A DNA stretch of 64,000 bases from Candidatus Poribacteria bacterium. GTDB taxonomy: Bacteria > Poribacteria > WGA-4E > PCPOR2b. The translations under genes were made by a program, and so were the position numbers. Below, one piece after another: positions 26,857 through 44,507 of this stretch (position 1 is its first letter; the number at the start of each line of letters is the position of its first letter). Under the pieces are notes generated by a model. The model was not told the DNA's origin. It saw nothing but the letters and a program-made list of their open reading frames with translations, and searched no databases. Location of the stretch: the NCBI GenBank assembly GCA_965218095.1, contig OZ244587.1, positions 3,968,001 to 4,032,000 of the forward strand, in the 5' to 3' direction.

Positions 26857-27573
26857 TCAAGGTCGCGTGGCTATTCTGAGCCGGTCAACGATGGTAAGGT
26901 GAGGCCAGAGGTCTTGCAGAAACTGTTCCAACGTTTCCTCGACAGTCGTGCACGTCGTGTCCAGGGTAAACTTGCGTTTAATCAGTGAATTATCGTACTC
27001 CTCTTGAAAGCGGTCCAGCACAAGCTCTACATCTCTGTCTTTGAGAATGCCTCTAATCCGCGGGTTCTGTCTCATCCGGTACTTGATGAGCTAGGCTGCT
27101 GCGCGCACCAAAATCAACATCGTGTCGGGCGCAAGCGCCAAGAGCTCGGCGTCCCAGGCCCGCGCACACGCACGACGGTCGGCGAACGAACTGGGATCCC
27201 CGTAGCCGTAGTAGATTGGGGCGTAAATGGCTTCGGTATAGTAATGATTGATGAACAGCGTGTCTTCATCGCGGAACATATCCGGGTGCAGATGACGCCA
27301 GACATTGTGACGTTGAAGCTGTTCAAGCACCGATGGCCGTAATGACAAGATCTGCTCTTCGTCTTCGGCGGTATTGAGGTCGGCCGCTGTTTTGCCTATA
27401 CTCGTTTGGTCACCTGCTGCGTGCACCAGCAGGTGACCATCGAGTTGCGGAACCACAAAATGATTGTGCCATCGCACCAGCCGCAATCCCATCGCTTCGA
27501 TCATCCATTTGGAGACCTCGGTGGCGAGAGTCTTCTTGCCGGTGTATTCACAACCTATGATAAGCAGGCGCAT
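26857..27573 (-). pseudogene. P-loop nucleotide kinase-like protein with in-frame TAG
   Basis: MRLLIIGCEYTGKKTLA Walker A; stop at 27091-27093, after which the same frame continues as LIKYRMRQNP. Confidence 0.65.
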
Positions 27574-27604
27574 TGGCTGCCTCCGTATGAATTAGTTGGA
27601 GCCC

Positions 27605-27700
27605 TAGGGCGTAATCAGGACCTTCATGGTTTGATGAGCGGGATGGGTGAATCTGTCGAAGGCCGTCTCCCAGTCTTCCAGCGGGAACCTGCAGGTAATG
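27605..27700 (-). pseudogene. C-terminal remnant of a Zn-dependent alcohol dehydrogenase
   Basis: LITCRFPLEDWETAFD...KVLITP*. Confidence 0.45.
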
Positions 27701-27716
27701 AGGGACTTTACGGCTA

Positions 27717-28497
27717 TTACTTGAAGCCAAGCTCCACCAGCTTCGCTGTCATGCCCCGGATGCGCGGACGGTCGCTGCTGAGGAACGACTCTTCGTAGAA
27801 CCGGTCCGTTTGGATGAACTGCATCCGCTCAATGTTCTGTTGGTTACTCTGGTACGAGCGCTGCAAATAGGCGATGTGCACATCAGTCGTTGGCTTGGCA
27901 CCAAAGTTCAGCGTGAACATGCGGCGCCCCGTCCGCCCACCGAACGACGAGTGCCAAAGATTCTGATTGAGAAACACCACGTCACCAGGCTTCGATTCCA
28001 GAGGGAAGCACGGCACGTCGCGTGGGGAAACAGCGAAGGGTACCACGCTAGGGTCCAACTGCTGACGCGTGAGCAGACTGACATCCTCGTGCAGCGGCGG
28101 CCGGTGGGAGCCGGGGATGACACGCAGGCGGCCGGTATCTTTCCCCACCGAGTCGAGATAGAATATCACCTTGATCTTGGCAGTCGGGGTGCCAGTCGGT
28201 ATCACCGACGTAGAGGTTGCCGGCGGACCCGATCCAGACGAAGCCCGGCCCCAGCAGTTGTTGGATTGGCTCGTAAATGCGGTCGTCGTCGGCCAGCCGT
28301 CTCAGCAACAGCCGTTTCTCGATAAAGCCAAACACCGCTTGCCGTTTCTCCCCCGGGAACGGTTATCCCTGACGGTCCTTAGACAGCAACTCGTCGAACG
28401 CATGACTGAACGCGTCCATCTCGTCCAGCGAGAAATACTGTCGCATCAAGAGAAAGCCAAAGATCTCAAAGTGTAATTTTTGTTCCGCAGTTAGCAT
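27717..28497 (-). pseudogene. Phytanoyl-CoA dioxygenase (PhyH) family, frameshifted
   Basis: MLTAEQKLHFEIFGFLL, WHPD, LRVIPGSH and PGDVVF..NLWH pieces in three frames. Confidence 0.85.
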
Positions 28498-28511
28498 CGT
28501 GCGTCCCCTCT

Positions 28512-29443
28512 CTACCGATCCGCAGCTAGTCGTCGCTGGTTCCATTCGCCCAATTCGAATCGGCGCGTATTGGCAGGCATCGACAGCGTTCGATATCGCG
28601 GTCCACGCGTGTGGGAGGCCTTGCCCTCGAACAGGACCTTCAGTTGCTGCGGGATCTGCCGCCGAAAAGACTCACTCAACTGGCCATGCTCATGGCCATT
28701 ATCCCAGTTGGGAAACAAGGTCGAGCCATATCCGGTGATGATGATGACGCGCTCCTTGTCGGAACAGTTCTGACCCGTAGCATGGATCAACGCCTCGCTG
28801 AACAACAGCGTGGAGCCGGCCGGGGCCACGACCTGATGGATCAAACTGCAGTCTTCGTACGTTACCTCGACGAGTTCCTTGGTCGACACGTCGATCTTGT
28901 GGCTGCCCGCGATCACTACCGTGCCCCCGTCATCCGGACCAAGGTCAGTCAGGTTCGTGAGCGTTTTAACGAAGTTGCAGTGAAAAAGGCCGTGGTGCGT
29001 GTGGCTGGCGAAGGGGATATCCGTGCCCCGGTGGAAGCCGTACTCTGGCGGCTCGTCGCAGCGCTAGGAGGGGTCGCGGCGGTTGATGTGGGCATTCATC
29101 TCGACGATGCGGGCCTCGCCGCCTATCAGTTCCTCTGCCATCGACACCATGAAGGGGTGGGTCGCGTACGCAGTGATGACCGGTGCCGCCTCAATGATGT
29201 TGGCCATATAATGGTGGTGGGGTTTGTCGACCACAATAAAGGCGTCGCGCACCCGTGGCCCCGATGCGGAGGGATCGTCAAGTTGCTTCAGCTCATCTCT
29301 GAGCCGATACAGGGCATCTTTGATGCGGGACACCTCCGCCGGTTTCAGCGTGTTCTCTACGACCACATATGCGCCGGCGTCAAAGGCGGAAACGGGCGAT
29401 CGAAGGTGAGGCTGTCGTTCATTCGTTCGGTGATTGTGTCCAT
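28512..29443 (-). pseudogene. PhyH family dioxygenase with a deletion and an in-frame stop
   Basis: GFHRG, NLTDLGPDDGGTVVIAGSHK and AGSTLLFSEALIHA motifs; TAG at 29064. Confidence 0.85.
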
Positions 29444-29659
29444 CCTTTTCTCCCGTCCAGGCGACCCTGTCATATTGTTGAAATTGGAAGTGAGCAGCGT
29501 TCGGACTGATGAAGCGGATGGCCGCCCTGATGAACCCGCATCAGGTGTCCTGACTCTTATTGCCGCATAACGCGATAACGATCAGCAGATTGGTGTGAGG
29601 TTTGTCATGAAGGGATACTTATCGTGTCCAGCCCCCTCTTAAATTCGTGCTGTACCACT

Positions 29660-29947
29660 CTAAGATGCAACCTCGAACTGTTCTGACTCAGGAGGCTTCG
29701 ACCACAGAACGCTCGCTCTACTCATTACGGCTGCGCGCTCTAGAGAAGCGCGCCAAGCGTCGTAGATCTCCAAACTCTCCCAAGTCACCAATGTCGTTAT
29801 CTTCGTCTCGTCGGCCAAGGAGATAAGCGTTTGCCGATTAATGAATCCGGGCGCTTTGCTCTGCGCTAGCCCATTGCGGTCCAAGAGCTCGTGCGCCTGA
29901 TTGACCTGTTCCTTCTTTGCCCAATGGTGAGTTAATACGCCTATCAT
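29660..29947 (-). CDS. Antibiotic biosynthesis monooxygenase (ABM) family protein
   Basis: APGFINRQTL...TLVTWES...W; RBS GGAGG. Confidence 0.8.
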   Translation of the reverse strand: MIGVLTHHWAKKEQVNQAHELLDRNGLAQSKAPGFINRQTLISLADETKITTLVTWESLEIYDAWRASLERAAVMSRASVLWSKPPESEQFEVAS

Positions 29948-30255
29948 AATTCCTCCATCCGGTTGTTAGGTTGTGTCATTGCTCTCACTAGCATAATTCC
30001 CTTGAGCTTCCCGCTTGGGCACGCTGGCCAAGTGACGTGCTGCACGGAAATCTTCGATTCCGCTAAACAGTACGAGGACAGCCATGCCTGCTAATGTAAT
30101 GCGGAGGATTCCCGGAACCTCCGCCGGTTGATATTTAATGGCTGTAGACATCATTCCCCCGGCGCCGATTTCAAAAAAGACTGAAGTTCAAATGAGAATT
30201 CTATTGAAATTCGTCCCGGCTAAGTCATAAAACTACGCACCCGGCCTATCAAATT

Positions 30256-30690
30256 TCACGGAAGAAAACGGTCTTTCTCCTCGGCACTCGGAATGCGACA
30301 GGAATCTCTCCGCCTGAACCATCGGTATCGATTTCGAGCGATCACTCGATAAACGGGATTTCGAATTCGTCGGGGGACGAAGCACAGAAGGCTCAAGAAC
30401 CACCAACCACCTCCCAAACGTCGATATACCTCAAGAGAGGCATCTGACTGATCGTGAATTCCCCGCTCGTCTAAATAAAGCATAGACCACTCCTGAGAGT
30501 CCTCGGAGAGTGGCGGTAGCAGTCTCTTGGCAGTTTCTCCTTGAAATGGCGCAAACCTGAACACATGTTTGGCGTCAACGCTCAGGATCAAATCCACAAA
30601 TCCGTTGCACATTCCACACACACCGTCGAAGAAGATGATCGGTGGCGCCTGCACGACACCCTTTGTTGTTTTTTCTGTCTCCGAATTCAT
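30256..30690 (-). CDS. DCC family thiol-disulfide oxidoreductase (DUF393)
   Basis: FFDGVCGMC, FAPFQ and YRVIARNRY..F..C motifs. Confidence 0.9.
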   Translation of the reverse strand: MNSETEKTTKGVVQAPPIIFFDGVCGMCNGFVDLILSVDAKHVFRFAPFQGETAKRLLPPLSEDSQEWSMLYLDERGIHDQSDASLEVYRRLGGGWWFLSLLCFVPRRIRNPVYRVIARNRYRWFRRRDSCRIPSAEEKDRFLP

Positions 30691-30730
30691 ATTCAGAAAT
30701 GGGACATTGAATTACATCGAGGTGAGTGTA

Positions 30731-30841
30731 ATCTAACACTGGAATTCACCTGGGCTGCCGCGAGATTCCGAAGTTATATTTGATCCCCAAAACGAGGAAA
30801 GGACCGGTTGCGGCAGCGTCAGGTGCAATAACTGGTTAGCG
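30731..30841 (-). other. Integron attC-like recombination site (111 bp)
   Basis: Minus strand: CGCTAAC-CAGTTA-TTGCACCTG-ACGCTGCCGC...GCGGCAGCC-CAGGTGAA-TTCCAGT-GTTAGAT; R boxes, an extra base in L'' and a palindromic core. Confidence 0.75.
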
Positions 30842-30924
30842 ATCTCTGCTAGCTATGAGAGAACGTGTTTGCTCATCCGTATTATAATCTGTATCAGCAT
30901 ATCGACCGTACACATCCGTAGATT

Positions 30925-32241
30925 TCAGATTTTGGACTTGCACGCCTGATGCGCCTCGATGAGTTCGATGATGTCCGTACGCTGAAAGTTGTGTGCCCAA
31001 CCGAGCGGAGTGCCGCCGAACGTTGCATCTTTGATGTCCAGATCGGGGTTCGCGGTCAGCAGAAGGCGAGCCAGTTCGATGTCGTCCCGCTCCGCCGCTA
31101 CGTGCAAGGGCGTCGTCTGCATTTCACCTGAACGCCGGTTGACGAGTTCGGGATTCTTAGCCAGAAGATCCGCAACGCGGTCCTTCCAGCCAAAGTCCCA
31201 TGCCGACAGCACGTCAAGCGTAACACCATGATCGACCAGCCACTGGGCTAAAGTGGTCTTGCCCAGCTTGACCGCGAGTTCCATGGGCATCATACCGTTT
31301 GTCAGGGGCACGTCAAAGCCATCAGTCTCAACCTGTTTCTCAAGCCCATCCAGTGCGTCAATGTCACCCCGTCCTATGGCCTCGGCAAAGGCAATCCGTG
31401 TTGGAGTGGGGGGATTGGCCTCCAGCCGTGCCACGTTCAACCACCACGTCATTCCATAACCGATCCGCTCGAAGCCGATCTGCCGATACATCCGCTCACC
31501 TGTGCCGTTGAGCGTGGCGTGTCGGCATCCGATCTTCTGGCCGTGCGAGCAAGCAGCGATTGTGACCGCTTTACCAACCCCCTGGTTACGAGCCTCTGGA
31601 ACGACGCCGATATCGTAGATTCCTGCAATGCCCAAGGCGCCTGTCGTCAAACACAGCGTGCTGTGGCCAACCGGTTTGCTGTCCAGCCATGCAGCAAAGT
31701 GCCATACCCGCTGGGGGCGTAAGCGGGTGGTGGCAAAGCGGATAGGCTCGGTCTTCTCGACGTAATAGGGAAGGTTGTCGACATCCCAGTCCGTTGCCTT
31801 TTGCACCATTTCGACGCACAGACCGTCCGGTCGCGGGTGGTCAATCCTCATTTTCTGCAAGTCGAGCCACATCCAGCGTGGACGCCATCCCAACTGGAAG
31901 CCACGAGCCAGAAGTCGAACCCCTAAGTCCGGTGGCTGGGTTGGGACCAGTGACCAACATCCGATTGAATTCTTGGGTCGGCGACTGCAATAGAATTGTA
32001 TGATCTCATCAATCTGATCATTCGCATTCGACTCTGTTAGACGAGGAAAGAGAATATAACACCCGCCATTTTGACCAGGGGTAAATACCCAGGTCACGCC
32101 ATTACTCACATGTATCTCTCCTCCTGCAGCTCGCGCTTTTAGTGTCATCCATATATGATGGTTCCATGCAGTAGCCGCTTCGAGTTGGTCATGCGACGAA
32201 TCTTGGAGAAAAGTCAACTCGGACTTCTGCTTCTCTGTCAT
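30925..32241 (-). CDS. GNAT acetyltransferase fused to ankyrin repeats
   Basis: GIYDIGVVPEARNQGVG GNAT motif A; TPLHVAAE..D and GGTPLGWA ankyrin motifs; RBS GAGGAGG. Confidence 0.85.
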   Translation of the reverse strand: MTEKQKSELTFLQDSSHDQLEAATAWNHHIWMTLKARAAGGEIHVSNGVTWVFTPGQNGGCYILFPRLTESNANDQIDEIIQFYCSRRPKNSIGCWSLVPTQPPDLGVRLLARGFQLGWRPRWMWLDLQKMRIDHPRPDGLCVEMVQKATDWDVDNLPYYVEKTEPIRFATTRLRPQRVWHFAAWLDSKPVGHSTLCLTTGALGIAGIYDIGVVPEARNQGVGKAVTIAACSHGQKIGCRHATLNGTGERMYRQIGFERIGYGMTWWLNVARLEANPPTPTRIAFAEAIGRGDIDALDGLEKQVETDGFDVPLTNGMMPMELAVKLGKTTLAQWLVDHGVTLDVLSAWDFGWKDRVADLLAKNPELVNRRSGEMQTTPLHVAAERDDIELARLLLTANPDLDIKDATFGGTPLGWAHNFQRTDIIELIEAHQACKSKI

Positions 32242-32258
32242 CTCAATATCCTCCTCAA

Positions 32259-32305
32259 ACATAAGGCCACAACTCCCCGTCGTCAACGGCAACGATTGGT
32301 TAGGA
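32259..32305 (-). other. Collapsed attC-like site
   Basis: Minus strand TCCTAAC-CAATCG-TTGCCGTTGACGACGGG-GAG-TTGTGGC-CTTATGT; the left arm closely resembles that of the 38433 site. Confidence 0.55.
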
Positions 32306-32450
32306 GAGCAATGCGTTCCAAAAAGGCTAACGGGTTTCTCCTTCTGGTTTATCCGATAGCAACCAATCCGTTAGCCCCAAAATCATCTTTCCCGTAAGCC
32401 TTCCGTTTCTTCTCTCGCTTCCTAACGACACAAGTCAGGTTGTGCCTGAC

Positions 32451-33137
32451 CTACCTGCTCGTCGGAGTCTCGCGTGCTGCTTCACGGATAAACTCATTAT
32501 CGTCGTTCAACGCCACGTTGAGTGAAGAAACAACATCCTTAGCCTCCGGGCCGGTGTGCCCCAAGGACTTCGCCGCATGAGATCGAACGGCCCATTCCTC
32601 ATCCTTCAACGCCTCAGTCAGTGCTTGCCATTCGCGCCCTGGGGCCAATACACCCCAGCGTCTCGCATGCCTGCCCACGAACCCGATAGTCAGCGTCAGC
32701 GTCCGCCAACACCTCTATCAAAGCTGGAATAGCATCCTCTGCTGAAGAACCGAGTTTACCCACGGCGAAGACCGACGGCCACTTATCTTGAACTTCTGCA
32801 TCAGTCAACAGGGGCCACCAGCGACGGTACCGCTTCGCGCCCAATAGCGGACAGCGCGCAGGTGGCGCTTAAGCGCACACCATAGTCCTGGTCCTGCAGT
32901 CTGAAGCAGTGAAGGGATTGCTTTTGGCGCCGCGTCGGCGAAACTCCCCAGGCGATTAGCTGCGGGTTTCCGAACAAGGTTCTTCAGTGACTTGCTGCCG
33001 TGCTTAAAATCAAGCGCACTAACAAGTGCAGAAATGGGGCCTTCCGGTTGATTTTCGAAATCGTCAACGATGGCAGCCGCTGCCCATTTCGCAGTTTCGC
33101 GGTGTCTGCCGAGTCCGACGGTGTCGAACTCGTCCAA
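32451..33137 (-). pseudogene. HEAT-repeat protein, fragmented
   Basis: AIPALIEVLAD...VRGQACETLG and ALKDEEWAVRSHAAKSLG repeats in three frames. Confidence 0.75.
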
Positions 33138-33396
33138 TTATACGGAATTTTTCCGTATAATTCGAGTTGAATCTTGCCTATAAACCGGGTAAAATACTTG
33201 ATGATTGTAGTACAATAAAGCAAGTAAAGTCAAGGATAGAATTCAGTATTTCATTAGGAATTTTTGACCATGAATTTACCAAACCACCAATGCTATATCG
33301 ATGATTGGCAGTCAAGCATTGTGCCCTGTCTGACGTTCCCGGCGTTCAGCTGATATGGACGCATCTACGTGTTCTACAACCAGAACCTGGAGAATT

Positions 33397-34269
33397 CTAA
33401 TGGCGCTCCCACCGGCTGGGGTTGATGCCAGAAGCTTCGCGGGGCATATCGGGCGGTTTGTTGCCACCCTCGTAGATCCAGATACGGGCGCTGCGATCGC
33501 TCATCAACTCGCGCAGGGCCGGAGAGAGCCTAGCTACTTCGTTCGCATCCCACGCCTCGACATCGCCGGCTGGGCCTGCCCAGGTCGGCCGGTACGAGAG
33601 TTGCAATGCCTCCCGCGCGTACGTGCCCACGTTCGGGTAGTTGCCGTGGAAAACATAATTGTTGAACAGCACCGCAGAGCCGGCTTTGCACGTTACCATC
33701 ACTTCCTCTGGGTGTTCCTCGTAGCGCAGGTACGGGTTAGCCTCGTTGTGGAAACTCAAATGCGACCGCGGCACCACGCGGAAAGGCGAAACTTCGGGTA
33801 TCAGGTCATCCAGGTAGTAAAGGACACGGATCAGTTTCGGACAGGTGTATTCCGCGCCGAAGATCCTGGACCCCCAGGGCTGGCCGTCGCAGTGCAGACT
33901 GATGCCCGGGTGCCCCGGCTCAGAGCGAGAGTAGTCGCAGGACATCAAAACCACCTGGTCGCCGCACAAGTTCTTGAGGAACTCGATCATCGGCGGGTAC
34001 ACAATCAGTTCGGTAATGGCCCCGCCGGTGAATTGGATGCTTTTCCGACCCCGCTGGTGCACGCTGTAGTCTACGTGGGTGGTTTCGAATTGCGCCGTCT
34101 GTTGTTTGAGGCGCGCAATGTGGTCGGCATCGAGTAAATCGGGTAGAACGAGGTAGCCTTCGACCTCGAGTTGCTGAATGCGCTGCCCGAGCGTGAGTTG
34201 GTTCCAGTCGCGGTCGTCTATGCGCGGGATGCCAACCGCCAGTCGGGACAAAGCAGGTGTATCTGACAT
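33397..34269 (-). CDS. PhyH family dioxygenase
   Basis: EGYLVLPDLL, SLHCD, FRVVPRSH and KAGSAVLFN..VFHG motifs; RBS AGGAG. Confidence 0.88.
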   Translation of the reverse strand: MSDTPALSRLAVGIPRIDDRDWNQLTLGQRIQQLEVEGYLVLPDLLDADHIARLKQQTAQFETTHVDYSVHQRGRKSIQFTGGAITELIVYPPMIEFLKNLCGDQVVLMSCDYSRSEPGHPGISLHCDGQPWGSRIFGAEYTCPKLIRVLYYLDDLIPEVSPFRVVPRSHLSFHNEANPYLRYEEHPEEVMVTCKAGSAVLFNNYVFHGNYPNVGTYAREALQLSYRPTWAGPAGDVEAWDANEVARLSPALRELMSDRSARIWIYEGGNKPPDMPREASGINPSRWERH

Positions 34270-34375
34270 GGCTCGATCTCCTCTTAAAGCATGTATCTTA
34301 TCGAAACGAATGAGCTGCATTTAACAATTAGGTGGAAATTGTCCGTTCAACTGCTTCACAGTGAATTGAAAGGCG

Positions 34376-34501
34376 GCCTGACAGTAGAGCTCAACGGATC
34401 GCGGTGCTCGTGGAGCGATAACATTTATCCCCACATTTACAGGATGATTTGCCGCGGCTGTCGATCTGCTGTCGAGATTCCGCTGCATGGCGTCGGTAGG
34501 T
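34376..34501 (-). other. Degenerate attC-like site (126 bp)
   Basis: Minus strand: ACCTACC-GACGCC-ATGCAGCGGA...TCCGTTGAG-CTCTACT-GTCAGGC; both R boxes are one base off consensus. Confidence 0.55.
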
Positions 34502-34521
34502 TGTTCAACGATAAAGCCGCT

Positions 34522-34612
34522 AACTCATGCCAAAAGAAAGTGCAAAAGTGTTAGAGAAGCCATGAAATCATTGGTGTGAATTTTGCCTTTGCACGAAGTC
34601 TTAACATGAGCC
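34522..34612. mobile_element. About 90-bp MITE with an 8-bp target duplication
   Basis: AAGCCGCT on both sides; ends (AA)CTCATG.../CTTAACATGAGCC; the same left end recurs at 36884-36918. Confidence 0.55.
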
Positions 34613-34708
34613 AAGCCGCTAACGTACCAGGACAGCATGACTAGTATGCCAACGGGGCTATCTCCATAATTAGTACACCTGAGACCTTGGACATCTACAG
34701 TGGCCAGT

Positions 34709-35641
34709 TCAAAATTGTGGAGCTTCATGACTGGAAGCTGGAATATCTGGGTCGCCTGATTCGGCCGATGTCAACCGTACTGCTCCTGCAAACTCCGGAA
34801 GTCGCGATAGAACAACTTGGCAGCCCGTCTTAAGGTCCTTCTGAAGCGATGTGTCAAAATAGTCAAAGGCTTCAAATTCCACGCTGAGACAGCCCTCGTA
34901 GCCAATACGCTTCATCGCGTCGAAAAAGCCGGGCCAGTCCACGCGGCCCTCGCCGAGGAAGGGGAAGCTGTCGCCAAGAATCTTGCCAACGATACCGGCA
35001 ACGTCCTTCACATGGCAGTGAAAGATCCGATCTGCCAATTGATGGATGGTCCAGGCTACTGTGTTGTCGTGCAGGGCCATGTGGGAGGGGGCGTAGTTCA
35101 CGCCGAAGCAATCCGAGTCGTAGCGCCTCATGAGCTCAGCAAGGGTGTAATACTCGCGGCAGACCATACCGTAGACTGCCTCAACAGCGATCTTGACACC
35201 GACCCGCTCGGCGATGGGAATAATACGGTCACATGCATTGCAGACCATTGACCAGGCCTCACCCTCGCTAATCTCTTGATGCAGTGTAGGTGAGCCGATT
35301 CCCATGAACGGCACCGGGCCGGTGAAGCAGTTGCCGACGCCAATCCCGAGATCGCCGGCGGCGCGGATGCAATCCGCAGTGAGCCTTATCTCGTTGTCAC
35401 GCACGATGTCGTTGAAATGGACGAATTCCCGCTGTACGACCCATTCCGAGATGGTCAGGCCGTTGGCCTCGGTCATGCGCACGAGTGCTTGCATCTGTGC
35501 TCGGGTCATGGTCTGCGGATTGAGGTGACGGATGGAGTATTCGATGCACTGGTAGCCGACCTCCGCTAACATGCCCACGACTTGCTCATCGGTCATGGGG
35601 CCCTGATCCAGATTCAGAAAGAAGCCTATCTTGTTGTTCAC
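34709..35641 (-). CDS. Sugar phosphate isomerase/epimerase (TIM barrel, AP_endonuc_2); 3' end possibly frameshifted
   Basis: IAVE, NYAPSH, HCHVKD, GEGRVDW and LSVEFE motifs. Confidence 0.8.
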   Translation of the reverse strand: MNNKIGFFLNLDQGPMTDEQVVGMLAEVGYQCIEYSIRHLNPQTMTRAQMQALVRMTEANGLTISEWVVQREFVHFNDIVRDNEIRLTADCIRAAGDLGIGVGNCFTGPVPFMGIGSPTLHQEISEGEAWSMVCNACDRIIPIAERVGVKIAVEAVYGMVCREYYTLAELMRRYDSDCFGVNYAPSHMALHDNTVAWTIHQLADRIFHCHVKDVAGIVGKILGDSFPFLGEGRVDWPGFFDAMKRIGYEGCLSVEFEAFDYFDTSLQKDLKTGCQVVLSRLPEFAGAVRLTSAESGDPDIPASSHEAPQF

Positions 35642-35723
35642 GACGAACCTCCCAGCCTGGACTTTCCACTTAATCTTGAAACTCACCAACCGGTTATCGA
35701 CGACAACCCGGCTGATACGGCAT

Positions 35724-36839
35724 TTAGCCAATCTGAGTCAACACCGCTTTACATCGCTCGGCAACAATCCGTTCCTGCCCAGGCTGCAGCATGTGGGGAT
35801 TGATCGCAATGCTGTCAGGGGTCAAGTGTTGACCAACCACAATACGTGGTTCGCTTTCTTGCAACGCATCTGCTATCATCTCCCGGGTGAAGCCAGCATC
35901 TGCTGTCGGGCGGATATAGAGCAGCGGCACCGTATACGTCTCCGCCTTGGTGAAACGCCCCACAGCTATATGCGGAATACCCTGCAACACTGCTTCGATA
36001 TAGTCCAGTTGAGCCGTCCAACGGGTGCTATCGGCCTCGTGGTCTCTCGCCAGATACAGTTCCAGCGCCTTCAGAAATCCGATGATTTCCTCCCGGCTCA
36101 CTTTCATCGGGCGACCGACCGTGGCGAATGGAACGCCGTTGGCGGCGCACGCTGCAACGAGGTCTTTGCGACCGATGATCAGCCCGGTGGATTGCGGTCC
36201 CATGATGCTCTTGCCACCACTGAAGATAACCAGATCCACACCCGCCCGCCAGAAACGCGTGAGGGTGGAGACCGGCGGACACTCCGAGGCGGCATCCATG
36301 ACCACCGGCACTGATGCCGCCCCGGCCATTGTCACGACATGATCCAATGGCACGGAGGCTGGATGGTCCATAACGTTGGCCATGTAGAAGATGGCCGCTG
36401 TGTTCTCATTGATGGCATGCCGCATCGCCTCAGTTGGCGGCGTCCCCTGATCATCAATCTCAATCAGAGTTGCCCCAGCCAGACGAATCGCCTGATCATA
36501 CGCAATTCGGTGCAGTTTCTGGATGATTACCTCATGCTTCATACCGGTCGTATCCGGCAATTGTCTAATCTTATCCGGATCGCTGCCAGCCATACAGGCG
36601 GCAGTAGTCAGCACCAAACCGCAGGCCGCGCTCGACGTCACATAGGCTGCCTCTACCTCAAGCATGGCGGCGATCTTTTGGCCGACCTTCTCGTGCAACT
36701 CATCGAGAAAACAGAACTGTTGGGATGCATGGCGCATACTGTCCAATACTTCGGGCGCCATCAGGGAACCGCCGTATCGGGTGACGGTTCCCGCTGCATT
36801 GATTAGCGTGCGAACGCCTAATTCCTCATAAATGCTCAT
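35724..36839 (-). CDS. SelA-like PLP-dependent enzyme (DgaE-type family)
   Basis: IYEELGVRTLINAAGT.T..GGS, DAASE, FSGGK and RPMKV motifs. Confidence 0.85.
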   Translation of the reverse strand: MSIYEELGVRTLINAAGTVTRYGGSLMAPEVLDSMRHASQQFCFLDELHEKVGQKIAAMLEVEAAYVTSSAACGLVLTTAACMAGSDPDKIRQLPDTTGMKHEVIIQKLHRIAYDQAIRLAGATLIEIDDQGTPPTEAMRHAINENTAAIFYMANVMDHPASVPLDHVVTMAGAASVPVVMDAASECPPVSTLTRFWRAGVDLVIFSGGKSIMGPQSTGLIIGRKDLVAACAANGVPFATVGRPMKVSREEIIGFLKALELYLARDHEADSTRWTAQLDYIEAVLQGIPHIAVGRFTKAETYTVPLLYIRPTADAGFTREMIADALQESEPRIVVGQHLTPDSIAINPHMLQPGQERIVAERCKAVLTQIG

Positions 36840-37006
36840 AGCGGGGTCTTCCTCAGCTTATTGAATTTTAACTTCAATCAATTGGCTCATGTTAAGAAAA
36901 CGTGCAACGAGTGTTAGACCAGATTGTTGAGTTCATGGAACTCCAGACCAGGACACCGGAAGTAATAGTTGAGAGAGAAGATCCGACGGCGCCAGTGCAG
37001 CACTGA

Positions 37007-37798
37007 TTAAGCTAACACCCTCAGACACTTATCGTCGATCGGCTCCAGGGGCGTAAAGTCGCGATTGTTTTGATACCAGGGACGCTCAGTGCCAGTACAG
37101 GCGTTGCTGACAGCGTTGTAAATCAAGTACATGATTGCCCGCTGCCACGGGGAGACATTATTGGCCGAACCGTGCACCACGTTGCAGTGGACGAAAGCGA
37201 CAGATCCCGCAGGCCCGATTAACGCTTCGATCCCGCTCTCTTCGGCGAGCCGTTCCAGGGTGGCGTCATCGATATGATGCAGCGCATACCCTCTCCCTTT
37301 CGCGTCCTTGTGAAGCTTAGAGTCGAGAAGACCATGGCGATGCGAGCTCGGCACGACCAGGAGAGGCGACGTGACCGCTGTGCAGTCGTTGATGAACACG
37401 GACGCCATAATGCATCTCGGCTCAGGCATACCGTCGATCGTATGCCAGGGCGGGTAATCCTGATGCCAGTCCCATGACGTGCCCCCGCCGAAACCCTGTT
37501 TGGGATTGATACGGCTCTGATGGAGATACACATCATCCCTCAACAGTTGGCAGACCGGGTTCAACAAACGTGGAAGCAGCGCGAGACACCGGAACGGTTC
37601 GGAATACACATGCGCCCCAAAGACTAGCCTGGCCGCTGTCGGATCTTCTTTCTCACGGACCACTTCCGGCCCCTGGCAAGTCAGGGTTTCCGGCATCGCC
37701 CTCTGCAAGATTGCCACCTCATCGTTGTCCAATAGACATGGAAAAAACAGGCAGCCCTGTTCATCAAACTCTGCAATCTGGGTGTCGTTGAGTTGCAT
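37007..37798 (-). CDS. PhyH family dioxygenase, ectoine/proline hydroxylase-like
   Basis: YLHQSRINPK..G..WDWHQD..WH..DGMPEP, VVPSSH and HGSANN motifs. Confidence 0.85.
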   Translation of the reverse strand: MQLNDTQIAEFDEQGCLFFPCLLDNDEVAILQRAMPETLTCQGPEVVREKEDPTAARLVFGAHVYSEPFRCLALLPRLLNPVCQLLRDDVYLHQSRINPKQGFGGGTSWDWHQDYPPWHTIDGMPEPRCIMASVFINDCTAVTSPLLVVPSSHRHGLLDSKLHKDAKGRGYALHHIDDATLERLAEESGIEALIGPAGSVAFVHCNVVHGSANNVSPWQRAIMYLIYNAVSNACTGTERPWYQNNRDFTPLEPIDDKCLRVLA

Positions 37799-37840
37799 GA
37801 TATTTGTGTTCTCCTTCGTTGAGTAAGGTGTATTCACGGT

Positions 37841-38180
37841 CTAGGACACCGGCAGTACGATTGGATCTTGACGCTGAATCGATTTCAGTACAGCCAGGAC
37901 AACGGCGATCGACCGAATACCATCTTGGCCGTCCACGATCGGCTTTTCCTCGCCCCTGACCACACGGCAAAAATGTTCAAGTTGAGACTTAAGCGGATCA
38001 ACCTGAGTCACTTTACTGCGTGATTCCTCCATCGGATGTTGCCAGCCCAATTAATCCTCATCAGCATAGCGCCACAACTCCATTCGCGGAAAGGCTAAGG
38101 AACCCAAGGTGCCGAGAAAGTGATAGCAGTTCTCATCCGTGTGAAAATAATACGGGTTCTCATGGGTGGTCGCCTCGTAT
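37841..38180 (-). pseudogene. C-terminal remnant of a Gfo/Idh/MocA oxidoreductase
   Basis: ENPYY...GTLGSL.FP...*LGW...QLEHFCRVVRGEEKP.VDG.DG.RS. Confidence 0.65.
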
Positions 38181-38265
38181 GACCAGGTCTATCGTTATAT
38201 TTTTCCGTTCTCCGGGTTTCATAATTTACGGACTCCTCGGTAATCGAGTATTTCACCGTTTTTCC

Positions 38266-38433
38266 TCCTAACAACCAAGTTCAGTTGTCCGATTCTCGGA
38301 CGAGCACAGCCTGCCCCGATCCATCTGGGAAGGGGGTTTACCGAAAAACGTCCGACAAGTCAAAACCCACCACAACCCCAAAAACATTCATAAAACCGAA
38401 GATCCCGCCGTCAACTGCAACGCTTTGTTAGGG
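38266..38433 (-). other. Integron attC-like site (168 bp)
   Basis: Minus strand: CCCTAAC-AAAGCG-TTGCAGTTG-ACGGCGGG...CAACTGAA-CTTGGTT-GTTAGGA. Confidence 0.72.
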
Positions 38434-38593
38434 AATAGTAGGTCTGGCGTAGAAGCATGTTACTGTCAAGCAACAGATGCAAAGTGATTTGGTTCTACAT
38501 AAGTGATAGGCATACCCTTCGTCGGGGATTCCTGAAAATGAGAAAGTTTCAAAAATTGATTCACGGGAATCGTTGTTAGCGCACGAAACACTA

Positions 38594-39429
38594 GGTTCTG
38601 TTGACATTTGAGTATAAGGTTGTGGCATAATAGAAGAATGACGCCAATAACCTTACCTGATGAACAATGGAATAAGATATACCGGTTTCTTCTAAGCTGT
38701 CCCACCATCTATGTTGGCGACGAAGCTGCTACACGCCGCTTCGTCGAAGCCGTTCTGTGGGTGACTCGTAGCAGCGCTCAATGGAGACTTCTACCAGACA
38801 CCTATGGCAAATGGAACACCCGCTACAAGCGGTTTGCTCGATGGTGCGACAAAGGTATCTTCACACAGATGCACCCCCACTTCGCCTCTGACCCCGATAT
38901 CGAGTCGCTTATTGTGGACAGTACCATCTGCCGCGCTCACCCGTCTGCGGCGGGCGCCTTAAAAAGCTGGCGCCTTAAAAAAAAGGGTGGCACTGAAAAC
39001 CAAGCATTAGGTCGGTCTCGGGGCGGTTTCAGTACAAAAAATCACATCACAGTTGACGGACTAGGCAATCCCCTAAGAATTCATCTGACCCCCGGTCAGA
39101 GACATGACATAACTGAGGCGGAAGGGTTGATAATCGGATATAACAGTGAATATGTGATTGGAGACAAGGGGTACGATTCGGACGCTTTTATCGCGGTTAT
39201 TGAGGCGAATGGAGCGATTGCGGTGATACCGCCAAAAAGTCATCGTGTTGACCAAAGAACGTATGACAAACGCTTATACAAAGAGAGACATCGGGTTGAA
39301 TGTTTCATCAACAAGATAAAATGGTATCGTCGTATCTTCTCTCGGTTTGAGAAGCTAGCTGTCCGTTATTTTGGATTTCTCAGCTTTGTCGCCACTCTTA
39401 TATGGCTCCCTTGAAATGTCAACAGAACC
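38594..39429 (+). mobile_element. IS5-family (IS427-group-like) element with an intact single ORF
   Basis: Perfect 16-bp TIRs GGTTCTGTTGACATTT; 836 bp. Confidence 0.93.
38638..39414 (+). CDS. IS5 family transposase
   Basis: WRLLP..YGKWNT.YKRF.RW, VDST, GRSRGGFSTK, GDKGYDS and YKERHRVEC motifs. Confidence 0.93.
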   Translation: MTPITLPDEQWNKIYRFLLSCPTIYVGDEAATRRFVEAVLWVTRSSAQWRLLPDTYGKWNTRYKRFARWCDKGIFTQMHPHFASDPDIESLIVDSTICRAHPSAAGALKSWRLKKKGGTENQALGRSRGGFSTKNHITVDGLGNPLRIHLTPGQRHDITEAEGLIIGYNSEYVIGDKGYDSDAFIAVIEANGAIAVIPPKSHRVDQRTYDKRLYKERHRVECFINKIKWYRRIFSRFEKLAVRYFGFLSFVATLIWLP

Positions 39430-39724
39430 TTAATTCTCGCAAATTCTCTGGCAATTGTTCAAGTTTATCAAGCGGATAACTTCGTGGACCATACTCTGTT
39501 TGTTCGGTAAGAATTGAGAAATGGAGAAGTGTCAAGCTGACAACCCACCCCGTCTTCGGATTCAGCCGTAACAGAATGTAATCGGTCAATTCAACACCTG
39601 TTGCTAGCTCATTGTCACCAAAGAAAATCTCCAGCATATCGCCACTCTCATCATATACCAAGCATATTGTCTCCCCATTTGCAGCTTTGACTTCCGTTCT
39701 TTGGAGTTTCAAGTTGCTCATACT

Positions 39725-40048
39725 ATTCACCCTTTTGGCAGAATATAGTTTGCCCAACCTGTGCCACAAAATCGTTAGGCATGCAATTTCCCGCCCCATC
39801 GAATTGTGTTTTGAAAATCACAACGGCAATGAGGTGATTGTTCTCTGGAAGTAATTCTCAAACCGCTTGAAATAGCGATACTCGTTGGGTATCATCGCAT
39901 CTTGCTTGTGTCGTCTTGTCCGTATCGTCTCCAGAAACTGATCGAAAAACGGCTCTAATTCGGGACGCGATTCCAAGATATAATTCCAACGCTCTTCCGT
40001 CAAATAAATCGTGTTGCCGTATCGGTCTTGAACTGTCGATCTCTTCAT
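39725..40048 (-). pseudogene. Toxin-like partner of DUF2283, frameshifted
   Basis: QDRYGNTIYLTEERW..I...RPEL...YRY; the reading continues in another frame as VVIFK...NYILPKG*. Confidence 0.5.
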
Positions 40049-40205
40049 CGATCAGACCTAACTCGTTTGCACGCTCATGCAGGAAGTACAGCAACACACA
40101 GTGATAGAATACCCGTCGCATGCGTTGGATTTGCTCTGGTGTCCGTTACTTTTCTCAAGTGCTGATTATGCGAAAGGTCAGTCCAAAGTCATTGATTTGC
40201 TGATT

Positions 40206-40403: not shown

Positions 40404-40468
40404 TTTGCATCCCCTTACCAGAGAAGAATAAAGAGCAGATAGCAGGCAGCGGCAAGATAAATAATCGC

Positions 40469-42122
40469 CTACACCCCCGGACGTTTGAACCAACGCGGGC
40501 CCCGCGCCGTCGGTTCAAACGGATATTCCGGCCGGATCGGCGCTTCCCGTAGTGTTTTTTGCAGCCAGGTCCCTTCCAGCGCTTTCAAGCGGTTGCTCAT
40601 CAGCTCTCGGAGGTCTGCGGCAACCTCATGTCGAGCGTATACCAGACCTTTTATTTCTTCTTCCCTGACGGAGCCCCACAACACATCAATAACCTTTGAC
40701 GCAATTAGCATACTTCCCGCTGGCAGAATCACGTTCCACAAATAAGCCCACCAGGTGTGCGTGTACCAGACCGGCAACGCCCAGCCTCTCGCGTCTGCCA
40801 GGATCGCCGAGATCCCGTAAGCGAGTCCCACGAGGAGTCCGATGATGCCAGTGGCACGATGCACCCGTGTGAAAACCCCCATGAGAATAACGGTCATGAG
40901 GGGAACGGCAATCGCCCCAGCCAAACGCAGATAGAACGCCACCATGCCTTCTTTGCTGAGAAACGGCACATACACAAACCCAAGCGCAATGATGAAGGGA
41001 ACCGTTATCCGGCCCACTCGGGTATAGTGAGCATCAGAACCATTCTTCACAATGAAACGGGCGTAAATATCGCGGACGAAAAGGCTTGAGATGCCGATGC
41101 CAATCGAATCGAAAGTGGAATACCCTCCAGCCACCAACCCCGCCAACACTAGCCCGATCAGCCCTGGTGGCAAATACTTCTTGACCATCAGGGGATATGC
41201 CTGGTCGCCAATCTCCAGCGCGGGAAAATCTGCTCGCGCCAACGGCCCCATGCTCACGTTGAACCAGAGGCAGATCGCCGTCGCGACGCTGGCGACCAGC
41301 GTCGCCATCTTGAAATCCCATTCGGAACGCGCTCCCAAAAAGCGAATGGCTTCGTACTGATTGATGAGCACATACGTTGTCAATACCACGATCCACCCGA
41401 AGACGACGAGAACGGGAGATACCCCGGGCTCCGTATATCCGCCCACATGCAGCAACGTCCTAGGCAAGTCGGTATCGATAGCGGCAAGTTTCTGATTTAG
41501 GCCGCCCCAGCCGCCGACATTCACCCACACCACGCCCCACAGCACGAAGGAAGCAACAATCATGGCGATGCTTTGGAGCGCGTCTGTAAAAACTCCTGCC
41601 GCCAAGCCGCCCCGGACGATGTACAGCACCGCCGTAAACGCCATCGCAACCACGATGGGCCAACTCCAGTTGCTGTCGACTTCCGCCACGATATTGAGTA
41701 CCAGGAACGTGGAAAAGAAGATATTGCCCAACACATTGGTCCGAGATTGAATATTAATCAAGACAGCTAAGAACCGAGCCCCTGGACCGAACCGAAATTC
41801 AAGCCACTCCGCGTTGGTGAATACCCCAGACCGATACATCGGGACAATGACGAAAAATTAGGATAAACCAGCCAACAGCGATTCCTAACCACCACTCGGT
41901 CAGTAGCGATAGTCCGAATTTATAGGCGCCTCCAGCGATGGCAACGTAATCGCCGGTGTCGATTGCAGTCGAAAAGGCGGATAGCCCAACAACCCACCAA
42001 GGTATAGATTTGGCGGCCAGATACCAGTCAAAACTCTCCCGCCGTCCCCTGAAAACAATGATTCCATACAGGACAATACCGCCGTTGATTGCTAGGACGA
42101 GCAGCCAGTCGATTAAGGTCAT
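40469..42122 (-). pseudogene. Sodium:solute symporter (SSS), frameshifted
   Basis: YLAAKSIPWW..GLS / T.AEWLE.RFG and GGL.A..FTD.LQ motifs; split near 41850. Confidence 0.8.
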
Positions 42123-42168
42123 AGAAGAACCTCCCTACGCTGCACTAAAGTGGTTAAGGAACTGAGCG

Positions 42169-43281
42169 CTAACAGACAACCGCCGCCGATACCGCATTGG
42201 AAACCCGCTGGAGCAAACTTCCATTATCCACCATCTGATTCGTCAAAATCACACACAGCAACTCCCGGTCAGGGTCGGCCCATGCCACCGTGCCAGTCGC
42301 GCCGGTGTGGCCAAAGGTCGCCGGGGAGACCAATTCACCGAAAAAGTTCCACACTTTTGAACCTGCCAACCCCCAGCCCAATCCCCAAGGCGCATTCAGC
42401 GTGCTGTTCTGGTCCGTTGTCATTGCCTTGACCGCAGCCGGACTGAAGACCTGTTTCCTGTCGTACGTACCACCGTTGAGCATAGTTTGCAACAGGATGG
42501 CTAGATCTGGAGCCGTGCTGTGCATCCCGCCCCACGGATTACCCAAATCCCGCCAGTAAGGGCTGTTTGGTCCAAAACGCTGCTGGTCTTCGGTCTCCTC
42601 TTTCGAGGTCCCACACCAAACCGTCTCAGGAATCTTAAATCTTCCCAGCCCCAGTGCGCTATTCTTCATTCCTAGCGGCTGGAAGATTTCTTCCGCCTCG
42701 AAATCCCGCAGGCGTTTTCCTGTAAGTCGCGCTACAATCTCCGACGCCAGCAGGATGCCTTTGCTCTGGTAGCTAAAATTTGTATTGGGTGAGTAAAGCA
42801 GCGGGGTTTGAGTCGCGTGACGGACGAACTCGTTTAACGGTGCGTGGGCGCGACGCAACTCCGTATTCTCAGGCAGCATGTCAGGCATGCCCGACGTGTG
42901 CGACAACAGATACCGGACCCGCACCTTGTCGCGTTCCCCGCCTTGAAACTCCGGCAAGTAAAGGGAGACCGAGTCATCAAGGGAGACTTGTCCCCGATCG
43001 ACCAGCAACATCAAGGCGCAAGCCGTGACCGGTTTGGTAATCGACGCCAGCAGGAAAACGGAGTCTGGCTTGACCGGGGGTGAATCCGCGTCAGGTGTCA
43101 GATGCCCATAGCCTTTTGAGTGGACGATTGTCTGGCTGCGAGCCAGCAGCAGCGCCGCCGCCGTAATCCGTCGGTTTTTGATTTCAGATTCAAGCATTGC
43201 TTCCGCCTGTGAAAGAGCTTCCTGAGACATTCCAACATCTGAGGCAGAACCTACCTTTAGTTTGGCGTGGATTGTTGACAT
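42169..43281 (-). CDS. Serine hydrolase, beta-lactamase class C family
   Basis: LASITK (SxxK), LLSHTSG, FSY and FGHTGATG motifs. Confidence 0.92.
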   Translation of the reverse strand: MSTIHAKLKVGSASDVGMSQEALSQAEAMLESEIKNRRITAAALLLARSQTIVHSKGYGHLTPDADSPPVKPDSVFLLASITKPVTACALMLLVDRGQVSLDDSVSLYLPEFQGGERDKVRVRYLLSHTSGMPDMLPENTELRRAHAPLNEFVRHATQTPLLYSPNTNFSYQSKGILLASEIVARLTGKRLRDFEAEEIFQPLGMKNSALGLGRFKIPETVWCGTSKEETEDQQRFGPNSPYWRDLGNPWGGMHSTAPDLAILLQTMLNGGTYDRKQVFSPAAVKAMTTDQNSTLNAPWGLGWGLAGSKVWNFFGELVSPATFGHTGATGTVAWADPDRELLCVILTNQMVDNGSLLQRVSNAVSAAVVC

Positions 43282-43477
43282 AGTTTACCTGATGATTTCC
43301 TTTCGTTGTTCTGTGCTAGCACCGAGCTTATGATACGAGTTTGTCACTTTCGGCGAGTGAAGTAAAAGATGATACCGGAGAGGAAACTGGGAACCCCATC
43401 TTGCCTACCCCTGTCAACATAGATAGCCACTTAGAGCCTTCATTGGCATTCGCGTGAGAAACTCGCACCAAAGGTTC

Positions 43478-44507
43478 TTATAAATACCAAGCCCGTGCCT
43501 CCATCAAAACTTCTCGCAGTCGCTTGCCGACAATCAGCTCTTCGCCCGGCTAAAGACTGAGAGAAAAAACCGTAAGTGGGCTGCCTTTTCGCTTGACCGG
43601 CTTCCCGTCAGGACCAACCGGCGGAAAGAATTCACGGACCCGCGTCACGTAGGGGTTGTAATTGCATAACACCGATATCGGCGGATTGCCTTCGCGCAAC
43701 TCGCGCTCACACTCGTCCGTGCCTAATCCAAGGGCCTCTTCATCCCAGCACACAACCAGTTGCATGAACCGGTTGCTGCCTGTGCGGACTTCAATCCTGG
43801 TTTTAACGCTGGGGACAGATTCCACGATAACCGCAATTCTTTCCGGCATCTCCGTTTGTTCTCGATACAGCGCATCAAGATCGATGGTCAGCCACTTTTC
43901 AAGCGCCGCCATGCAGCCGATAATCTCTTCCTTGCCGACTTTCATTGCACGGCACACCGCGCCTTCAACGGGAGCTGCATTGGCGAGCGCTGCATCGATT
44001 AAGTCCGCCCCAGTAACAGCTAGCTGGTCTGGGGACCGCGTAACCCTTTACCGCCGCTAAACCCATATAAGTCCAAAGTCCACACCCATAGGCGGATATC
44101 TTCGGATATTGTCGATCGGTGGGATGCCGCCGGCCGCGTCAACAAATACGGGGACACCTGAAGATTTGCAGATCGATACCATCTCCGTCAACGGAGGCGG
44201 ATTAACCGGGTCTGGGTCAGCGGGGTATCCCGTGTAAAGCATGGCGGTCTCTCTGTTGATAGCGCTGCGGAGTTCATCCAGGGTGTTGACGACCACCGGC
44301 ACCCCGCTGCAGTTCGACTACGTCAACCATGTAATGCGACGCTTCCTCAATAGCACGGTGCACCTCCGGCCACACCACTGTAGCGCTCAAAAAGGTGAAC
44401 GGAAGGTTCGCATTGATGAACGGCTTGACTCCCAGACGGATGTAAACGTTGTCATCGAAGCTATGGTCTGTTGCCTCTGCATCCGTTCGCTTGGTTTGGC
44501 GATTCAT
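43478..44507 (-). pseudogene. Second SelA-like PLP enzyme, fragmented
   Basis: VYIRLGVKPFINA, VDAAG, SGGK remnant, CRAMKVGKEEI and PGEELIV. Confidence 0.75.

Follow-up and report, generated by a model that had tools for sequence, protein, structure and literature searches.

attC sites and their relics in a CALIN-like region of a Candidatus Poribacteria genome

In the chromosomal integrons of Xanthomonas, the integrase gene intI has been inactivated and the attC sites and cassettes persist, the array staying at a fixed locus. Here we describe a region of the genome of a Candidatus Poribacteria bacterium (G000; 6.35 Mb, one contig), contained in a stretch of 64,000 nucleotides at genome positions 3968001-4032000, hereafter called the window. 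Positions 26857-44507 of the window had been interpreted, in a first-pass annotation made from the letters alone, as one decaying integron cassette array with metabolic cargo and no integrase. We find that the region is a remnant of a known kind, resembling the attC clusters that are without an integrase (CALIN), and that it is probably the debris of a fragmented integron and not a standing 17.6-kb array.

The part of Cury et al. (2016; PMC4889954) that deals with CALIN defines them as at least two attC sites detected by covariance model (CM), less than 4 kb apart and on one strand, single sites being discarded. It discusses as their origins the loss of intI, rearrangements that split an array, the involvement of insertion sequences (IS) and insertion at secondary sites, and it reports integrons in Planctomycetes among other phyla. 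With respect to the anatomy of attC sites, the relevant passages of Nivina et al. (2016; PMC5027507) place the extrahelical bases on the AAC arm in the top strand and opposite AAC in the bottom strand, with, as a rule, a G for the L'' extrahelical base and a conserved T at the far position (G16 and T23 in attCaadA7); the Vibrio cholerae repeats, with the 133-bp VCR2, are named there as well. Taxon-specific attC models, one of them for Planctomycetes, are described in the corresponding part of Ghaly et al. (2021; PMC8352920).

Two full attC sites, three relics and their family

A motif scan of the entire genome returned paired half sites at about a dozen places outside the window, and 10 of these, none in the window and all alignable along their whole 65-153 nt, served as seeds for a CM named R1, on which a structure of R box, L box and inner stem was imposed. 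Hidden Markov models (HMMs) of the 5' half and the 3' half were derived from the same seeds. R1 was run on the window with filters off, on the genome with the best 150 of 2626 candidates scored, and on 30 relatives, all from genera other than that of G000, where up to 98 candidates per genome were scored; the comparison set thus comprises 31 genomes. The significance of a fold was expressed as a z-score of the DNA fold against 200 shuffles. In the 10 seeds, 89.7% of the cells of the imposed structure pair, versus 28-47% when the partner is slid. Covariation in these seeds was no better than in shuffled alignments (its score was reached by 97 of 500 shuffles), the seeds being too similar for usable covariation, so that the R/L structure is supported by pairing and not by covariation. 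The consensus of RNAalifold preferred another inner pairing, and the R/L structure was imposed in its place. Other approaches were discarded: a generic structural scan of the entire genome (R box of at least 6/7, L box of at least 7/8 with a bulge) gave 200 matches on both strands, mostly noise, and failed to recover one of the two full sites described below (attC-D), which makes it too unspecific for judging weak sites, while lone half-site regular expressions were about as frequent as in shuffled sequence, and only paired halves were used. Rfam gave no match in the window at gathering score.

The attC elements that received support from these models are as follows.

38266-38433, minus strand: attC-A, full site of 168 nt (R1, half-site HMMs, fold); R'' 38427-38433, spacer 38421-38426, L'' 38412-38420, L' 38280-38287, spacer 38273-38279, R' 38266-38272
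30731-30841, minus strand: attC-D, full site of 111 nt (R1, fold); R'' 30835-30841, spacer 30829-30834, L'' 30820-30828, L' 30745-30752, spacer 30738-30744, R' 30731-30737
32257-32307, minus strand: relic C, a collapsed attC, annotated earlier as 32259-32305
32323-32378, minus strand: relic B', a 56-nt palindrome absent from the earlier list
32418-32530, minus strand: relic B, with a degenerate 5' half, overlapping the end of a HEAT-repeat pseudogene

attC-A and attC-D, two of the three sites originally proposed as full, were recovered with exactly these boundaries. On the minus strand attC-A reads CCCTAAC, a 6-nt spacer, TTGCAGTTG ... CAACTGAA, a 7-nt spacer and GTTAGGA, and attC-D reads CGCTAAC, 6 nt, TTGCACCTG ... 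CAGGTGAA, 7 nt and GTTAGAT. R1 scored attC-A (38266-38435, minus) at 86.3 bits (E 6.6e-26 in the window, 3.8e-26 genome-wide), with E values of 3.9e-8 and 8.1e-7 for the half-site HMMs, and attC-D (30729-30843, minus) at 26.7 bits (E 3.7e-6 in the window, 3.6e-4 genome-wide). In both sites R'' and R' are complementary (..AAC/GTT..) and the R boxes pair in the folds, the purine/pyrimidine consensus at the outer R-box positions being only loosely followed, and the third L'' base is left without a partner; this base lies in the AAC-side arm on the gene-sense strand, hence opposite AAC on the bottom strand, and in attC-A it is the G at 38418, which is a C on the bottom strand. Folding of the bottom strands, which had been suggested as a way to confirm extrahelical bases, gave for attC-D (plus strand, 30729-30843; z -2.72, 2 of 200 shuffles as good) an R box and, beyond a spacer that stays unpaired, an L box in which a C and, 6 nt from it, a T are without partners. 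attC-A (38266-38435) has the same anatomy, with R and L pairing like that of attC-D; its z-score of -0.55 is not significant, owing to its long centre. The polarity of both sites agrees with that of the surrounding genes, attC-D lying 3' of a co-oriented GNAT-ankyrin gene and attC-A 3' only of a short region cut by an IS. Both are genuine attC sites, so the earlier claim that minus-polarity attC sites occur here without intI is borne out.

The third proposed full site, 34376-34501, behaved differently, with no R1 match at E<=10, no half-site HMM match at E<=50, and folds that do not stand out from those of shuffled sequence (z +0.5, matched by 135 of the 200 shuffles, and z +0.89). Nine further collapsed or half sites had been annotated, two of which, 32259-32305 and 32420-32442, are supported by the half-site HMMs and correspond to relics C and B. 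Relic C retains a well-preserved R''-spacer-L'' half (TCCTAAC CAATCG TTGCCGTTG) followed by a deleted centre and a degenerate R'; its 5' half (32306-32274) is matched at E 7.7e-6, R1 gives 12.5 bits (E 0.19 for the window), and its fold is not significant (z -0.59). Relic B preserves the L'-spacer-R' half at 32420-32442 (...CAACCTGAC TTGTGTC GTTAGGA), with E 0.019 for the 3' half HMM (32435-32420) and 8.6 bits for R1 (E 3.7 in the window, 0.034 in 601 nt). Between them, relic B' forms a perfect 9-bp R-box stem (GGCTAACGG / CCGTTAGCC) without a clear L box; at 6.4 bits (E 0.18 in the 601-nt search) and a plus-strand fold z of -3.33 (2 of 200 shuffles as good), the evidence for it as an attC is weak on its own. 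The other seven annotated sites (29565-29586, 29953-29971, 33328-33377, 34617-34713, 36990-37012, 40056-40062 and 42138-42159) appear in neither the CM nor the HMM list, and the folds of 34617-34713 (z +1.64) and 33328-33377 (z -0.37) are not significant. Besides attC-A and attC-D, R1 gives 11 further window matches at E<=10, all weak and including relics C and B. The five supported elements share one polarity and are confined to two patches, one at 30.7-32.5 kb (attC-D and the three relics) and the other formed by the lone attC-A at 38.3 kb; nothing was detected by CM or HMM at 38.4-44.5 kb or below 30.7 kb. The picture of one relic array with 12 sites over 17.6 kb is not borne out.

Two other palindromic sequences of the window were set apart from the attC sites. 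The following repeat, recognized by alignment and fold, lies between the annotated sites 34376-34501 and 34617-34713 and is not an attC.

34524-34614: palindromic repeat of 91 nt, resembling a miniature inverted-repeat transposable element (MITE), with ends GGCTCATGT/ACATGAGCC

It has 9 other copies in the genome (81-98% identity) and is flanked in the window by the direct repeat AAGCCGCT(AAC), containing GCCGCTAAC; the GTTAGCG at 34617-34623, annotated as an R', is one copy of this direct repeat. An 8-bp flanking direct repeat was found at 2 of 9 copies examined, and the 67-aa open reading frame (ORF) at 34525-34728 is spurious, since the repeat accounts for it. The second sequence, a perfect palindrome at 23999-24040 (CATCTGATC...GATCAGATC), produced a spurious 15-bit R1 match on the plus strand; it is terminator-like and was rejected as an attC.

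Genome-wide, R1 gave 35 matches at E<=1 among the best 150 of the 2626 candidates, 30 of them below 1e-3 and 10 of them the seeds. They fall into about 22 loci, on both strands overall and co-oriented within clusters, and roughly 13 of these loci are singletons. The 10 seed sites evidently form, from their alignment, one homogeneous attC family, whose members are long (115-170 nt), alike along their whole length with an unusually conserved central part, and common to related genera. At E<=0.001 R1 found no match in 12 of the 31 genomes, including all four of family f2. On contig C20 of relative G001, a 9-kb stretch carries seven matches at E<=1e-7 and one weak match, all on one strand and 0.7-1.4 kb apart, together with co-oriented ORFs of 95-202 aa that each terminate just before a site; this is a canonical cassette array.

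Two loci of G000 were inspected individually. A closer look at 566-584 kb added three attC sites to the genome list of R1, and the larger cluster at 566000-584000 comprises six minus-strand sites, two of them weak; it adjoins a BsuBI/PstI-type restriction enzyme and an Eco57I-like methylase and includes TPR, GH123-like and BNR-repeat proteins. At 4749358-4749496 a single attC (91 bits) has the RNase J gene on one side and the PdxA gene on the other, two core genes that are adjacent in none of the 12 family relatives searched. An attC-mediated reciprocal rearrangement at this place was considered and found no support, the genes that follow RNase J in g4 genomes being 12.8 kb and 148 kb from any attC of G000.

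Integrase remnants and their link to attC

No integrase was found among the 89 ORFs of the window, as the first-pass annotation had stated, and no intI-like piece lies within 1.2 Mb of it. The genome search for intI that it recommended yielded pieces and pseudogenes and no intact copy: with the profile TIGR02249 (cut-off 265 bits), none of the nine matches in G000 exceeded the cut-off, the best (1536854-1537808) reaching 216 bits with at least 7 stops. The pieces are the following.

1055430-1055857: matches residues 1-110 of the IntI of relative G006 at 82% identity and, beside this, residues 97-143 at 72%
2745027-2745251: matches residues 250-324 of the same IntI at 87% identity
1536860-1537808: full-length intI pseudogene, 51-54% identical to the same IntI
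1226029-1226169: intI piece
5237597-5237671: intI piece

The pieces at 1.055 and 2.745 Mb and the distant pseudogene at 1.537 Mb mean that at least two intI genes existed. One of these genes seems, from the parts of the protein that are matched, to have been physically split into pieces now 1.69 Mb apart, and, judging by the state of all the matches, intI is dead in G000.

The presence of intI and the number of attC sites run in parallel. TIGR02249 matched at E<=1e-20 in three of the 31 genomes only (G000, G001 and G006), and the same three have the most R1 matches (at least 29, 71 and 28, respectively), the remaining genomes having 8 or fewer. An intact intI occurs only in G006 (505.8 bits, open frame of 342 aa), and this integrase has relatives of 57-70% identity across many phyla. 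In G000, an attC of 125.8 bits is located 0.9 kb upstream of, and divergent from, the N-terminal intI piece; in G001 an attC holds the corresponding divergent position 1.4 kb upstream of the N-terminal piece; and a 25-aa intI piece of G000 lies 2.4 kb from a three-site attC cluster at 5.24 Mb. The array of G001, the counts that track intI, the positions next to intI and the further intI piece together indicate that the repeats are integron attC sites.

That they could instead belong to another palindromic family, REP-like (repetitive extragenic palindromic) or MITE-like, which merely resembles attC, is therefore scarcely credible. The genome does contain palindromic repeats of other families, the 91-nt element at 34524-34614 among them, the centre of the family is unusually conserved, and the unpaired L-box base is a C on the bottom strand where, in the passages of PMC5027507 on this base, it is usually a G. 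The geometry is, however, fully canonical, a relative carries an array of co-oriented small ORFs with a site after each, the sites diverge from intI pieces in two genomes and their numbers track intI across the 31 genomes; homogeneous attC sites are, moreover, typical of chromosomal integrons according to the part of PMC4889954 that treats them.

Genes around the attC sites and the origin of the region

The genes and other features of 26857-44507 are listed below.

27717-29540, minus strand: two pseudogenes of the PhyH family, interrupted by in-frame stops and changes of frame (Pfam on the C-terminal parts only)
29660-29947, minus strand: ABM monooxygenase (Pfam)
30256-30690, minus strand: DCC1-like thiol-disulfide oxidoreductase (Pfam)
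30925-32241, minus strand: GNAT acetyltransferase-ankyrin gene (Pfam Acetyltransf_1 and Ank_2), likely ATG at 32241 behind GGAGG
32451-33137, minus strand: HEAT-repeat gene, broken, in three overlapping frames (Pfam HEAT_2 on two of three fragments)
33397-38185, minus strand: block of apparently ordinary chromosomal genes (Pfam, NCBIfam), made up of the next five entries
33397-34320, minus strand: PhyH
34709-35731, minus strand: TIM-barrel sugar isomerase/epimerase-like gene
35724-36839, minus strand: DgaE-family lyase dependent on pyridoxal phosphate, annotated earlier as SelA-like (TIGR01437, 197 bits, below the cut-off)
37007-37837, minus strand: ectoine-hydroxylase-like PhyH
37850-38185, minus strand: GFO/IDH/MocA oxidoreductase, last 112 codons
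38186-38265, minus strand: joint, the 80 nt between the R' of attC-A and the breakpoint of the oxidoreductase (GC 0.41)
38590-39430, plus strand: IS5-family insertion sequence (NCBIfam transpos_IS5_3, 246 bits), 155 nt from attC-A
40469-42122, minus strand: sodium:solute symporter, frameshifted (Pfam)
42169-43281, minus strand: serine hydrolase of beta-lactamase fold (Pfam)
43550-44507, minus strand: second DgaE-family gene, a pseudogene in three frames (NCBIfam on two of three pieces, the middle one by tblastn)

Two general features of the earlier description are upheld. The genes run in one direction, all Pfam-supported ORFs being on the minus strand except the IS5 transposase (38608-39414), and the four plus-strand ORFs tested in the region are all without a Pfam match. 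The region is also decaying and contains at least six pseudogenes: the symporter, the oxidoreductase, the HEAT-repeat gene, both PhyH genes of 27717-29540 and, at 43.5-44.5 kb, the second gene of DgaE type. Matches to the IS5-family element that exceed 600 nt number 129 across the genome (85-99% identity), a second IS is present in 15 copies, and IS elements also occur at 56300-57200 and 15100-16000 of the window, the genome being very IS-rich. Elsewhere in the window, at 53976-55173, the N-terminal domain of a lactate racemase is split over ORFs of 96 and 295 aa, likely by a frameshift.

With respect to cassettes, the earlier interpretation is right for the GNAT-ankyrin gene, which forms a 1.5-kb unit from relic C to attC-D and is the sole convincing, well-formed single-gene cassette of the region. 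Its homologues in G001 (65% aa identity) and G005 (62%) have no attC within the fetched flanks, and the regions upstream of them do not align with relic C. The HEAT-repeat gene is possibly a cassette that ended in relic B; no homologue of it was found beside PhyH in G014 or G017. Downstream of attC-D, 29660-30690 holds the ABM gene, a 62-aa ORF and the DCC1-like gene, all cassette-sized, none of which is followed by an attC detectable by CM or HMM, and the ABM and DCC1-like homologues in G006 and G014 are not flanked by attC sites. For a 126-aa DUF2283-like ORF, homologous loci were fetched from G001 (two), G005 and G012 (one from each), and in none of the four is the homologue beside an attC; an 87-aa ORF (39858-40121) had no match in 5 relatives. 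At 26857-27573 a pair of genes of 72 and 160 aa, of no known family, has two paralogous pairs near 5.348 and 0.770 Mb and may be a two-gene module.

The remaining genes appear, on comparison with relatives, to be mostly chromosomal in origin and not cassettes. Orthologues of PhyH and the DgaE-family lyase occur in G014 and G017 at 84-85% aa identity; the cupin and aldo-keto reductase genes that border the region in the window, at 44.9-46.3 kb, are there no more than about 14 kb from them, and R1 matches nothing at these loci. The symporter and the serine hydrolase (about 40.2-43.3 kb) form a contiguous 3-kb block in nine g4 genomes and two adjacent pieces in G003, at 74-78% nt identity; on the basis of this synteny in 10 g4 genomes we take them for a conserved two-gene block and not for cassettes. 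The second DgaE-family gene is contiguous in g4 genomes as well. The metabolic cargo of the annotated array is thus mostly ordinary chromosomal DNA: sister genera possess orthologues of the PhyH, SelA-like, SSS-transporter and serine-hydrolase genes, some in conserved blocks, and at the loci scanned, which were those of PhyH and the SelA-like lyase, no attC was found in the fetched flanks.

A further observation bears on how attC-A reached its present place. By tblastn, the oxidoreductase remnant matches residues 244-355 of a protein of 357 aa whose gene is complete in G020 and next to a PhyH homologue there; for the 243 N-terminal codons that the remnant lacks, the genome has no other close copy, the next-best match being about 28% identical. 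From the break in this gene, the junction beside attC-A is best read as a deletion or rearrangement joint and not as a cassette boundary. With this joint, and with a cargo that is mostly ordinary chromosome, the proposal that cassette shuffling expands catabolic families in this lineage finds no support.

Overall, the region combines attC sites of canonical anatomy, members of one family that is linked to intI, with a lack of synteny and no working integrase. If it is the debris of a fragmented integron, rearrangement and deletion would have scattered the about 35 attC sites over roughly 22 loci, and the two patches of the window would be pieces of former arrays, relocated and trimmed. An illegitimate deletion would have joined attC-A to the truncated oxidoreductase gene, the genes between the patches being presumably ordinary chromosome, and the sites, deprived of an integrase, would be inert and would recombine only if an integron integrase entered the cell.

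Several points weigh against this reading. Gene order is generally scrambled with respect to the relatives, these being of other genera, and the absence of synteny therefore weighs little either way. The identity of the attC sites rests here on our own family model, together with anatomy and context, and not on a generic attC model; the motif by which seeds were picked was derived from the two sites of the window, so that the family is defined from them, although both were kept out of R1; and R1, being family-specific, is blind to decayed attC sites of other sequence types, which leaves the remaining annotated sites unsupported and not disproved. The intact intI of G006, which is on a short contig, has no R1 match closer than 1.5 kb, and the proximity of attC sites to IS copies is not significant (11 of 34 attC sites within 5 kb versus 7.0 expected; P = 0.07). 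Finally, PhyH, TIM-barrel and DgaE-like genes also occur beside attC sites at 566-584 kb and 4.75 Mb, and an attC is found no further than 5 kb from 2 of 5 DgaE-like and 3 of 18 PhyH paralogues, as compared with roughly estimated expectations of about 5%; this association is weak.

These last associations are also what would be expected if the whole of 26857-44507 were one old array, with most attC sites decayed past recognition and with the PhyH, DgaE-like, transporter and hydrolase genes as present or former cassettes. The uniform minus-strand genes, the shared polarity of the five supported attC sites, the abundance of pseudogenes and the mixture of attC sites with large genes at 566-584 kb point in the same direction. 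We nevertheless hold such an array to be unlikely, as (i) 8 of the 12 claimed sites are without CM or HMM signal, (ii) the transporter-hydrolase pair is conserved in 10 g4 genomes, (iii) homologues of the PhyH, DgaE, ABM, DCC1, GNAT-ankyrin and DUF2283-like genes are without attC in the fetched flanks of relatives, (iv) attC-A is separated by 80 nt from a gene that is cut off at codon 244, and (v) the PhyH, GFO and TIM families are very abundant in G000 (more than 45 matches for the GFO-like family), so that proximity to attC sites is expected by chance.

A different history, in which an active IntI placed single cassettes at GTT-like chromosomal sites other than attI and the patches never were in a large array, has a low probability for the region, albeit insertion of this kind is possible for some loci. 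It is a known origin of CALIN according to the part of PMC4889954 on their formation, and singletons make up roughly 13 of the about 22 loci, one of them between the RNase J and PdxA genes. Insertion alone cannot, however, explain the joint at attC-A, the 243 N-terminal codons of the oxidoreductase being neither upstream of the site nor elsewhere. Three collapsed relics in tandem within 280 nt resemble an eroded array, the split of intI into pieces 1.69 Mb apart implies that large rearrangements did break integron DNA, and since RNase J and PdxA are not neighbours in the 12 relatives, the attC between them marks a rearrangement joint and no clean insertion.

Within the reading of the region as integron debris, one speculative consequence may be mentioned. 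attC-A on one side and relic B/attC-D on the other bracket 5.7 kb with the GFO remnant, PhyH, the DgaE-like lyase, the TIM-barrel enzyme, a second PhyH and the HEAT pseudogene. Should an integrase arrive, this catabolic block might be excisable by attC x attC recombination as a multi-gene cassette, and the dispersal of attC debris might then be one route of cassette birth. We regard this as a long shot; if true, an excised circle with one attC would give the unsolved question of where cassettes come from a possible answer that is open to testing, and the idea of metabolic cargo would be saved in part.

Comparison with known systems

The genome offers a worked example of an integron after death, with split and pseudogenised intI genes and about 35 homogeneous attC sites over roughly 22 loci of an IS-rich chromosome. 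As one relative keeps arrays and another an intact integrase, the group provides a natural series for integron decay and is suited to finding out if orphan attC sites retain any importance as targets of recombination. A word of caution also follows: co-oriented genes with AAC- and GTT-like motifs over-predict attC sites, and the supposed metabolic cargo was mostly ordinary chromosome.

A complete integron has an intact intI beside attI and an array, and none is present in G000. As in Xanthomonas, the integrase is pseudogenised and attC sites and cassettes are kept; unlike there, intI and the attC sites are both scattered. With sedentary chromosomal integrons, such as that of Vibrio cholerae, the family shares long, mutually similar attC sites and, in relatives, arrays of small co-oriented ORFs, and it differs from them in that G000 is without a working integrase or a large array, the sites are dispersed and the L-box base is a C. 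Compared with the attC sites described in the relevant passages of PMC5027507, attC-A and attC-D agree in the placement and spacing of the extrahelical bases, the first base on the bottom strand being a C and not the usual G. The homogeneity of the family agrees with the taxon-specific attC models presented in the portion of PMC8352920 that concerns them.

Under the CALIN rule as worded in that part of PMC4889954, the window is borderline. attC-A and attC-D are 7.4 kb apart; attC-D is 1.4 kb from the relics at 32.26-32.53 kb, which reach only 12.5, 8.6 and 6.4 bits and are below significance; and attC-A is 5.7 kb from the nearest relic. G000 also differs in that its attC sites are spread over about 22 separate loci, many of which have just one site. 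In other respects the window resembles the CALIN of the same text: it has attC sites and cassettes far from any intI, resistance genes are not among the cassettes, and the origins proposed there for CALIN all fit.

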